This document shows positions 29,677 to 30,756 of a stretch of DNA of 64,000 nt, one piece after another (within the stretch, counting starts at the first letter, position 1; each line of letters opens with the position of its first letter). The position numbers were made by a program, and so were the translations under genes. Below the pieces are notes generated by a model, which saw only the letters and a list, made by a program, of their open reading frames with translations, was not told the origin of the DNA and ran no database searches. Origin of the DNA: an uncultured Halanaerobiales bacterium (GTDB taxonomy: Bacteria; Bacillota; Halanaerobiia; Halanaerobiales; M55B127); NCBI GenBank assembly GCA_913055675.1, contig CAJXKY010000001.1, positions 11,094 through 75,093 of the forward strand. The letters run 5' to 3'.

Positions 29677-30756
29677 TTGAAGTACAATAATTATTTAGTT
29701 GTATTGTCGATACTTTTTCTTTTTGTAATATTGTTTACTCCTGTGACTAGTGCTTTGAAAGTAGAAGGTAAGTATCCAATAGAACTCTTTGATGAGTTCT
29801 GGGAGTCCAAACTGACAGAAGAGGAATATAGTATATTAAAAGAAGCAAGTACTGAACCGGCTTTTAATAATAAATATTATCGTAACAAAGAAAAGGGAAT
29901 TTATTCATGTGCAGCGTGTGGGAATTTTCTATTTGATTCAGAGCACAAGTATAGCTCTGGTAGTGGTTGGCCTAGTTTTTATGATGTTTATTCCGATAAT
30001 TCTGTAGTAACTAGAGCAGATGATAGTATGGGAATGAACCGAACCGAGGTTATTTGTTCAAGATGTGGTGGCCATCTCGGTCATTTATTTAGTGATGGGC
30101 CTGAACCGACTGGTTTAAGATACTGTATAAATTCAGCGTCACTGCAGTTTTTAAAAGCTGCTCATTTTGCAAAAGGCTGATTTTGGGGTACCGAGGCCCA
30201 GTTTGGTGCCTTAGATGGAGTAGTTCATACTTATGTAGGTTATGCTGGTGGTACAACTGATAACCCTACCTATAATGAAATCGGAAATCATGCAGAGACA
30301 TTAAAAGTTTTATATGATCCGGAAGTTGTTACCTATGAAGAATTAGTAGATTATTATATTGAAATAACTGAAGTTAATTTTAGACCTACTTCTGGACAAT
30401 ATAGATATATAATATTTTATGATAATGAAAAACAAGAGCAACATATAAAAGAGGTAGAAGAAAAAAGAAGAGAAGCAGAAGAAATATATTTTGATGTAAA
30501 AGAATTAGAAAAATTTTATATAGCAGAAGATTATCATCAAAAATATCAGGTTAGATCAAATAAAAAGCTGTATAATAAGTTAATGGAGATATTTAAAGGT
30601 GAACAGGTATTTATTGATTCTACATTAGCTACAAAATTGAATTCTTACCGTTCAGGATTAATTTCTGATCAAAAGATGAATCAGATAATTGATAATTCTT
30701 ATCTTAGTCCCATTTACCCTCAAAAAATAGAAGAAGTTAAGGATATAATAGAATAA
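29677..30756 (+). CDS. msrBA: fused peptide-methionine sulfoxide reductase MsrB-MsrA with in-frame TGA (candidate selenocysteine) at the MsrA catalytic position; N-terminal signal/anchor
   Basis: The MsrB part has CAACG, CSRCGGHLGH and RYCINS. TGA at 30178-30180 is followed in the same frame by 191 sense codons with MsrA motifs: [47 protein letters not shown]. The context [12 protein letters not shown] corresponds to GCFWG. Confidence 0.75.
30193..30212 (+). promoter_or_regulatory. candidate bacterial SECIS stem-loop
   Basis: GAGGCCCA-GUU-UGG(U)GCCUU forms 8 bp with one bulged U and a G/U-containing apical loop. It starts 12 nt after the UGA. Confidence 0.45.

Follow-up and report, generated by a model that had tools for sequence, protein, structure and literature searches.

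The msrBA reading frame and its domains

We analysed a stretch of 64,000 nucleotides (nt) from contig CAJXKY010000001.1 of an uncultured Halanaerobiales bacterium (assembly GCA_913055675.1; the whole stretch is hereafter called the window), in which an open reading frame (ORF) for a methionine sulfoxide reductase B (MsrB) domain is followed in the same frame by an uncalled methionine sulfoxide reductase A (MsrA) domain. Clustering at 90% identity or more placed the MsrB, FdhA and AOR proteins of the window with proteins of Halanaerobiales MAGs (metagenome-assembled genomes). The entire frame, for which we use the name msrBA, consists of 359 codons and contains exactly one internal stop, the TGA at positions 30178-30180 (Table 1). 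The ORF listing of the window closes the first ORF at this TGA. The initial annotation, made from the sequence, had proposed that the TGA encodes selenocysteine (Sec) in an MsrB-MsrA fusion, and our retranslation agreed with its count of 191 sense codons between the TGA and the TAA at 30754-56. An in-frame TAA at 29656-58 rules out a start farther upstream than the TTG codon, which is preceded by a Shine-Dalgarno-like sequence. Past the TGA, the first ATG, GTG or TTG in the frame is located at 30583, 57 codons before the end, consistent with the earlier observation that the MsrA part has no start codon of its own until near its end. The calculated mass of the precursor is 41.6 kDa, or about 38.6 kDa once the predicted leader is removed.

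The Pfam domain search was performed with Cys in place of the TGA, and it detected a SelR (MsrB) domain and a PMSR (MsrA) domain, the latter corresponding to the uncalled domain that the initial annotation had recognized from its motifs. The best matches of the MsrB domain in PDB were 2K8D (E = 2.1e-45) and human MsrB3 (6Q9V). This domain has two CxxC zinc motifs (C78/C81 and C127/C130), the catalytic Cys150 in the motif RYCINS and, like human MsrB3, the motif GSGWPSF, in which the usual resolving position is without Cys. The Cys residues of the msrBA protein are those at positions 78, 81, 127, 130 and 150, and position 168 is the TGA codon; none is present in the translation after residue 168, so that the MsrA part is free of Cys, as had been noted previously.

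Among the solved structures, the MsrA part was most similar to MsrA of Clostridium (Alkaliphilus) oremlandii OhILAs (CoMsrA; PDB 4U66 and 4LWJ; E about 3e-43, about 45% identity over 182 residues). CoMsrA is a natively Sec-containing enzyme of the 1-Cys type with the catalytic residue at position 16, and its crystallised Cys versions have the motif 15-GCFWG-19 (PMC4333827, PMC4479559). The TGA column aligned with residue 16 in these Cys-version structures, confirming that the TGA stands in place of the catalytic Cys of the GCFWG motif. The helical domain of CoMsrA (residues 145-209) is required for its activity (PMC4333827), and a corresponding C-terminal region is present in the msrBA protein. 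With this helical C-terminus and no resolving Cys, the MsrA part is of the 1-Cys/1-Sec type, and its junction with the MsrB domain is direct, without a linker. The NCBIfam profile NF004042 ('bifunctional methionine sulfoxide reductase B/A protein') has the same B/A order and aligned over residues 43-303 (profile positions 8-288 of 293), but the score of 251.9 bits was below the curated cut-off of 330, which places msrBA outside this equivalog family; msrBA has the helical domain and the leader in addition. A weak match to NF041383 (VPGUxxT family thioredoxin-like (seleno)protein, type 2) was also obtained over residues 157-246 (E = 5.8e-9, far under the cut-off), and suggests that the NF041383 family may contain an MsrA-like segment.

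Table 1. Features of the msrBA locus, with positions in the window
Feature	Position	Strand	Basis and remarks
2TM-domain gene (PF13239)	29308..29658	+	Pfam, E 7.3e-30; no Cys; ends 18 nt before msrBA
Shine-Dalgarno-like sequence GAAGGA	29665..29670	+	Direct sequence reading; 6 nt ahead of the TTG start
msrBA coding sequence	29677..30756	+	Translation, Pfam SelR and PMSR; TTG start, UGA at codon 168 (predicted Sec), TAA stop
N-terminal hydrophobic leader	29677..29754	+	Residues 1-26, MKYNNYLVVLSILFLFVILFTPVTSA followed by LKVEG; small residues at -3 and -1
MsrB (SelR) domain	29812..30153	+	Pfam PF01641, residues 46-159, E 4.7e-48
MsrA (PMSR) catalytic domain	30160..30573	+	Pfam PF01625, residues 162-299, E 6e-36, above the gathering score
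UGA codon 168, predicted Sec in the GUFWG motif of MsrA	30178..30180	+	Aligned with CoMsrA residue 16
Extended minimum free energy (MFE) hairpin	30182..30215	+	14 bp, loop GGCCCA; alternative register
SECIS-like hairpin, conserved core	30193..30212	+	Fold and orthologue comparison; numbered from the U of UGA
C-terminal helical domain, C. oremlandii MsrA type	30562..30753	+	Residues about 296-359; CoMsrA alignment reaches chain residue 193 of 209

Conservation of the TGA codon and of the downstream hairpin

When the MsrA half was used as the query in a protein search, close homologues appeared only as N-terminally truncated gene calls. The DNA of each of these calls contains an acetyltransferase gene and a 2TM gene, then a SelR ORF of about 167 amino acids (aa) ending in TGA, and then an in-frame PMSR part. 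A metagenome scan, for which the clade-specific C-terminal helical domain served as the sole seed to avoid a bias toward TGA or TGC, gave 11 further loci, all with the arrangement leader-MsrB-G-TGA-FWG-MsrA. In total, the frame and architecture of msrBA were found in 14 distinct DNA orthologues, the most distant of which has 53% identity in its MsrA part; they were obtained from independent metagenomes and MAGs. The comparison of TGA with TGC or TGT among orthologues, which the initial annotation had recommended, showed that the TGA is kept in all 14, and none of them has another stop or a frameshift. The pairwise ratios of nonsynonymous to synonymous substitution rates (dN/dS) against the nearest orthologues were 0.12-0.17 for the part after the TGA and 0.05-0.06 for the part before it, and these values indicate that the frame downstream of the TGA is under purifying selection.

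It may be argued that msrBA is a pseudogene or that its TGA arose from TGC or TGT by a sequencing or assembly error, since the codons differ by one base and assemblies of MAGs contain errors. This explanation is already contradicted and has a negligible probability: independent samples and assemblers (Logan, ENA, JGI and NCBI) have yielded at least 14 distinct sequences with this TGA, the exact neighbouring ATPase is found on 7 contigs, and the downstream part combines low dN/dS with the absence of frameshifts and extra stops.

The full-length search also detected 18 Cys forms (P0047-P0064) with 43-52% identity, which have GCFWG or GCFWK and the same direct MsrB-MsrA fusion. Several of them are from Halanaerobiales MAGs, and the NCBI label is simply MsrB. 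The MsrB-MsrA fusion therefore exists in a Cys form too, which is a correction to the initial annotation. The TGA orthologues and the Cys homologues together constitute a Sec/Cys pair, the basis of SECIS-independent selenoprotein prediction, SECIS being the selenocysteine insertion sequence (PMC13188914). The same 2026 review lists MsrA among the experimentally supported prokaryotic selenoprotein families, with the motif GUFWG/H.

In the annotations by NCBI and other gene callers, these genes are given as an 'MsrB' of 145-167 aa plus a PMSR fragment (P0001-P0005, P0008), or else the motif is written GWFWG. The former calls would agree with two genes: an msrB closed by the TGA, and an msrA that is translated independently through re-initiation or coupling. 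However, no in-frame ATG, GTG or TTG is present within 30181-30582, and a product started separately would be devoid of the catalytic residue; the called fragments start at differing, non-homologous places, all without the GxFWG catalytic residue; and in 14 of 14 orthologues the frame continues across the TGA. The Cys homologues are continuous fusions. The arrangement with two genes is thus already contradicted and very improbable. We consider that the gene callers split msrBA in two because the Sec codon TGA is read as a stop. One such call from a relative (NCBI MCF8000866.1, 145 aa) begins within the leader, close to the point of predicted cleavage, and is likely to be too short.

The GWFWG entries were informative in another respect. 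In P0025 and P0043-P0046, the databases contain full-length calls of the same genes with Trp at the TGA, and through this misreading the codon TGA is independently confirmed in other assemblies. Public Sec-MsrA genes translated with TGA as Trp include P0006 in addition to these, and others are split into fragments; the GWFWG calls presumably derive from gene callers switching to genetic code 4. These proteins could be taken as support for a genome-wide reassignment of TGA to Trp or Gly. Such a reassignment is already contradicted, and its probability is minute: 11 of the 52 other long ORFs of the window stop at TGA, in-frame TGA codons are absent from all other genes, and an enzyme with Trp as its nucleophile residue would be inactive; the homologues have Cys there. 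A six-frame scan of the 64 kb showed that the TGA at 30178-30180 is the sole TGA between two long open segments that is not antisense to a called gene; the arrangement goes beyond what chance would give. Since TGA is a normal stop elsewhere in the window, the recoding at this codon would be site-specific.

Downstream of the UGA codon there is a hairpin, the conserved core of which coincides exactly with the stem-loop (30193-30212) reported in the initial annotation. The core pairs are G16-U35, A17-U34, G18-C33, G19-C32, C20-G31, C21-G29 and C22-G28, with U30 bulged and the apical loop AGUUU. The core hairpin (-9.0 kcal/mol) is formable in all 11 distinct RNA versions of the fusion clade, in which the apical loop is AGUUU or UGUAU. 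All four fusion-clade sequences with U21 have A30, by which the bulge is closed to give a continuous 7-bp stem. The MFE fold of the region 30178-30225 has -17.1 kcal/mol (z = -3.07), and 1 of 200 shuffled sequences folded equally well. Its 14-bp register was rejected as the functional form, since it is not conserved and is weak or absent in the orthologous loci L003, L006 and L100.

We compared the hairpin with the model of the bacterial SECIS (bSECIS) in the 2026 review, which requires an apical loop of 3-9 nt, an upper stem of 4-16 bp, a G within the first two loop positions, a spacing of 16-37 nt from the UGA to the loop, and an MFE of -7.5 kcal/mol or lower (PMC13188914). The observed loop has 5 nt, the upper stem has 7 bp with one bulge, the G is in the second loop position and is followed by U, the spacing is 19 nt, and the MFE is -9.0 kcal/mol for the core and -17.1 kcal/mol for the MFE fold, all of which conform to the model. 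In 57 Sec-MsrA genes of the wider family, there is a hairpin with this offset whose loop contains GUU. The covariation score over these genes was 0.280 versus 0.136 for shuffles, none of 500 shuffles scored as high, and all slid registers gave lower scores. The pairs 18-32, 19-31 and 23-27 vary on both sides; for the pair 18-32, for example, CG was found in 22 genes, GC in 8, AU in 7 and UA in 5. The loci used for this comparison did not include C. oremlandii DNA. The GC content is 54% in the 35 nt past the TGA and 32% in the gene. This stretch uses codons that are rare in the window (GAG, 16% of Glu codons, and GCC, 11% of Ala codons), and they are fixed in 14 of 14 orthologues.

A search of Rfam at the gathering thresholds gave no match at the hairpin site, a result that is uninformative either way; to our knowledge, Rfam has no bacterial SECIS family. 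Terminator-like matches at 30067-30085 and 30144-30161 were disregarded, as they lie inside the conserved coding frame.

Leader, neighbouring genes and proposed function

The hydrophobic N-terminal leader mentioned in the initial annotation was found to be conserved across the orthologues. Its mean Kyte-Doolittle hydropathy is 3.17 over residues 7-21, and the pattern is present in all orthologues with VSA|IK, VNA|IK or TSA|LK at the predicted cleavage site; several of them start at ATG. The leaderless Cys homologue P0052 starts (MKLDGKYPIE) exactly at the predicted mature end of the msrBA protein. The leader is predicted to be a signal peptide of the general secretory pathway, or it may be an uncleaved signal anchor, and the protein is probably exported. 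If the Halanaerobiales are two-membraned bacteria, an exported enzyme would be periplasmic.

The neighbours of msrBA encode a 2TM protein, a GNAT acetyltransferase, a P-type ATPase, an aldo-keto reductase and a leaderless AhpC/TSA protein. The 2TM gene is also upstream of msrBA in the orthologous loci L001, L003, L005 and L009; it is probably co-transcribed with msrBA, and its product may be a membrane partner of the msrBA protein. The AhpC/TSA (peroxiredoxin-like) protein (33643-34104) was considered as a candidate for the reductant and was rejected, since it has no leader.

We propose the following scheme for the expression and function of msrBA. Translation would begin at the TTG at 29677, and the ribosome would pass the UGA at 30178-80 without termination; the hairpin located 13-35 nt past the UGA would act as a bacterial SECIS and recruit SelB-GTP-Sec-tRNASec, by which Sec would be placed as residue 168. 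The product would consist of the leader, a zinc-type MsrB with Cys150 and, joined to it directly, a C. oremlandii-type 1-Sec MsrA. The leader would probably take the protein across the cytoplasmic membrane, where the two domains may repair envelope proteins by reducing both the R and the S form of methionine sulfoxide. Because neither domain has a resolving Cys, an external thiol would have to act directly as the reductant of the sulfenic and selenenic intermediates. The msrBA protein is thus likely, as judged from its sequence, to be a bifunctional methionine sulfoxide reductase that is exported or anchored.

Several observations weigh against this interpretation. ARAGORN detected no tRNA, and hence no tRNASec, in the 64-kb window, and a Pfam scan of 30 ORFs of the window gave no selA, selB or selD. 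Apart from MsrA, the one typical selenoprotein family represented in the window is the formate dehydrogenase (17222-19936), and it uses Cys, as the initial annotation had stated: its ORF is uninterrupted, with Cys (ARLCHAST) at the FdhF active-site position. The stem of the hairpin is near invariant in the fusion clade, so that most of the covariation comes from the wider family, in which the register of the lower stem is slightly different, and the conservation of synonymous sites beside the TGA is marginal (p = 0.054, 7 codons). The leader was read manually, and in some orthologues its N-region is acidic or carries little charge (MENNNY, MANNNY). Finally, there is no CcdA/DsbD, exported thioredoxin or glutaredoxin near msrBA, and no thioredoxin domain is fused to it. 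On the supporting side, a member of the same order, Halanaerobium praevalens, is listed as having two candidates for tRNASec and a predicted set of five selenoproteins (PMC5330540). On balance, we conclude with high confidence that the region 29677-30756 is one gene, msrBA, a mis-annotated genuine selenoprotein gene, and it is very likely that the catalytic residue of its MsrA domain, residue 168, is Sec written as a TGA 'stop'. The interpretation as a Sec-containing MsrB-MsrA fusion in the initial annotation is supported accordingly by the conserved frame, the Sec/Cys pair and the hairpin.

A refinement, which would not replace the explanation by Sec insertion, is that termination at the UGA gives MsrB alone and Sec insertion gives MsrB-MsrA; both products would have a physiological role, and the selenium supply would set their ratio. 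Bacterial release factor 2 competes with the insertion of Sec, which as a rule is not complete. The SelR domain ends at residue 159 and the UGA is codon 168, about 8 residues beyond the MsrB fold, so that termination would release a complete MsrB (18.9 kDa as precursor and 15.9 kDa when mature) that retains the zinc ligands and Cys150; the linker-free junction with the UGA at the domain boundary is kept in all orthologues. On the other hand, the catalytic residue lies near the N-terminus of every MsrA, so the position of the UGA need not have been selected, and the Cys-type fusions share the junction without any such switch. This refinement, which was suggested by the position of the codon in the sequence, is therefore tentative. 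We regard as equally speculative the broader picture of an exported selenoenzyme whose Cys150 and Sec168 sites are recycled outside the cytoplasm by a new reductant, with the selenium supply choosing between MsrB alone and the bifunctional enzyme. The literature searched gave no account of an Msr with Sec that is exported, nor of a selenium switch at the UGA.

Comparison with known systems and distribution of Sec-containing MsrA

The msrBA protein resembles CoMsrA (PDB 4LWJ, 4U66 and others) in having UGA/Sec at the position of GUFWG residue 16, no other Cys in the MsrA part, and the helical C-terminus. CoMsrA is, in contrast, a stand-alone, leaderless, cytoplasmic protein of 209 aa that is reduced by glutaredoxin (PMC4333827), whereas MsrA of msrBA is fused directly behind MsrB and the protein has an N-terminal leader. 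With the Cys-type fusions of Halanaerobiales and other Bacillota (P0047-P0064), msrBA shares the B-then-A order and the direct junction (...LK/LQxAYFAxG-C-FWG...); many of them have the helical C-terminus and several have a hydrophobic leader, but msrBA differs in using Sec and in its limited identity to them. The stand-alone Sec-MsrA genes of the wider family (L010-L070) share the TGA column, the hairpin offset, the GUU-containing loop and the helical domain, although they have 33-46% identity, are nearly all without MsrB, and have the lower stem shifted by one base.

Exported fusions of the two reductases are known from other bacteria: PilB of Neisseria has the order Trx-MsrA-MsrB, and MsrAB2 of Streptococcus pneumoniae works with Etrx/CcdA. 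In them, both Msr activities reside on one exported or anchored polypeptide for envelope repair, an arrangement that msrBA would share if its leader is functional. They differ from msrBA in the A-then-B order, in the use of Cys and in having a fused or neighbouring thioredoxin-like reductant.

We also surveyed TGA versus TGY codons at the catalytic column in 80 MsrA loci listed from GTDB species genomes with two search patterns, one of which required a Cys codon. Among the matches listed, 51 of the 80 loci have TGA, and these belong to Chloroflexota, Desulfobacterota, Planctomycetota, Actinomycetota, Syntrophomonadaceae, Spirochaetaceae, Nitrospirota, Acidobacteriota and Salsuginibacillus; the Cys forms among them are from haloarchaea, cyanobacteria and Bacteroidota. 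No close orthologue of msrBA was found among the reference-genome matches listed. A survey in 2006 had already named MsrA among the selenoproteins of Syntrophobacter fumaroxidans (PMC1794560). Given these counts and the recognition of Sec-MsrA as a known family (PMC13188914), the statement in the initial annotation that Sec-MsrA has been reported only rarely understates its frequency.

Two further observations were made on these loci. In L033, from an uncultured Anaerolineales, the region of about 2270-3600 contains a membrane anchor, MsrB, a linker of about 40 residues (…PPIDAAAP…) and ATFAMG-TGA-FWG, apparently a second, independent MsrB-MsrA(Sec) fusion. Many stand-alone Sec-MsrA genes (L011, L021, L024, L034, L057 and L060) encode lipobox-like or signal-like leaders (for example LLGGCGDG, LLTACGTG and GLSGCAEQ), which are followed by a conserved PPID…P…ETATFALG-U-FWG, and exported Sec-MsrA may thus be common.

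Other parts of the window contain features apart from msrBA. On the minus strand, two ORFs at 20595-21764 were assigned by synteny with L003 to an encapsulin (Linocin_M18) and an encapsulated ferritin (EncFtn-like), and they adjoin the cluster of the NAD-linked, Cys-type formate dehydrogenase (14876-20545). An FMN riboswitch (RF00050, 103.6 bits) is located at 39110-39228, ahead of the ORFs at 39302-42776, which are presumably a riboflavin operon. The region 45000-49097 is degraded: it contains the C-terminal part of an IS110-like transposase (46054-46587) and a small ORF (45205-45405) that ends in LLFFHPLAWTSLCA, a copy of the AhpC/TSA protein. The aldehyde:ferredoxin oxidoreductase ORF at 47781-49097 has AFOR_C domains only and is probably a gene truncated by insertion, and an intact paralogue is present at 53147-55009.

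The Sec-MsrA family, the logic of SECIS elements, the MsrB-MsrA architecture and exported Msr enzymes are already known, and msrBA leaves the current view of Sec decoding and of Msr enzymes unaltered; its architecture is somewhat unusual and adds a modest twist. In the literature searched, the combination found in msrBA, the systematic mis-annotation and the breadth of Sec-MsrA seem to be undescribed. The splitting of msrBA in annotations has the consequence that both the repair of methionine-S-sulfoxide and the use of selenium in this lineage are overlooked, and the calls of PMSR fragments are catalytically meaningless. Sec-MsrA of the C. oremlandii type is far commoner in the genomes of anaerobes than the few characterised cases imply, and its covarying SECIS hairpin could be converted into a search model. 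If the leader is functional, the msrBA product would be an extracytoplasmic selenoprotein without an obvious reductant, which raises the question of how it is recycled.

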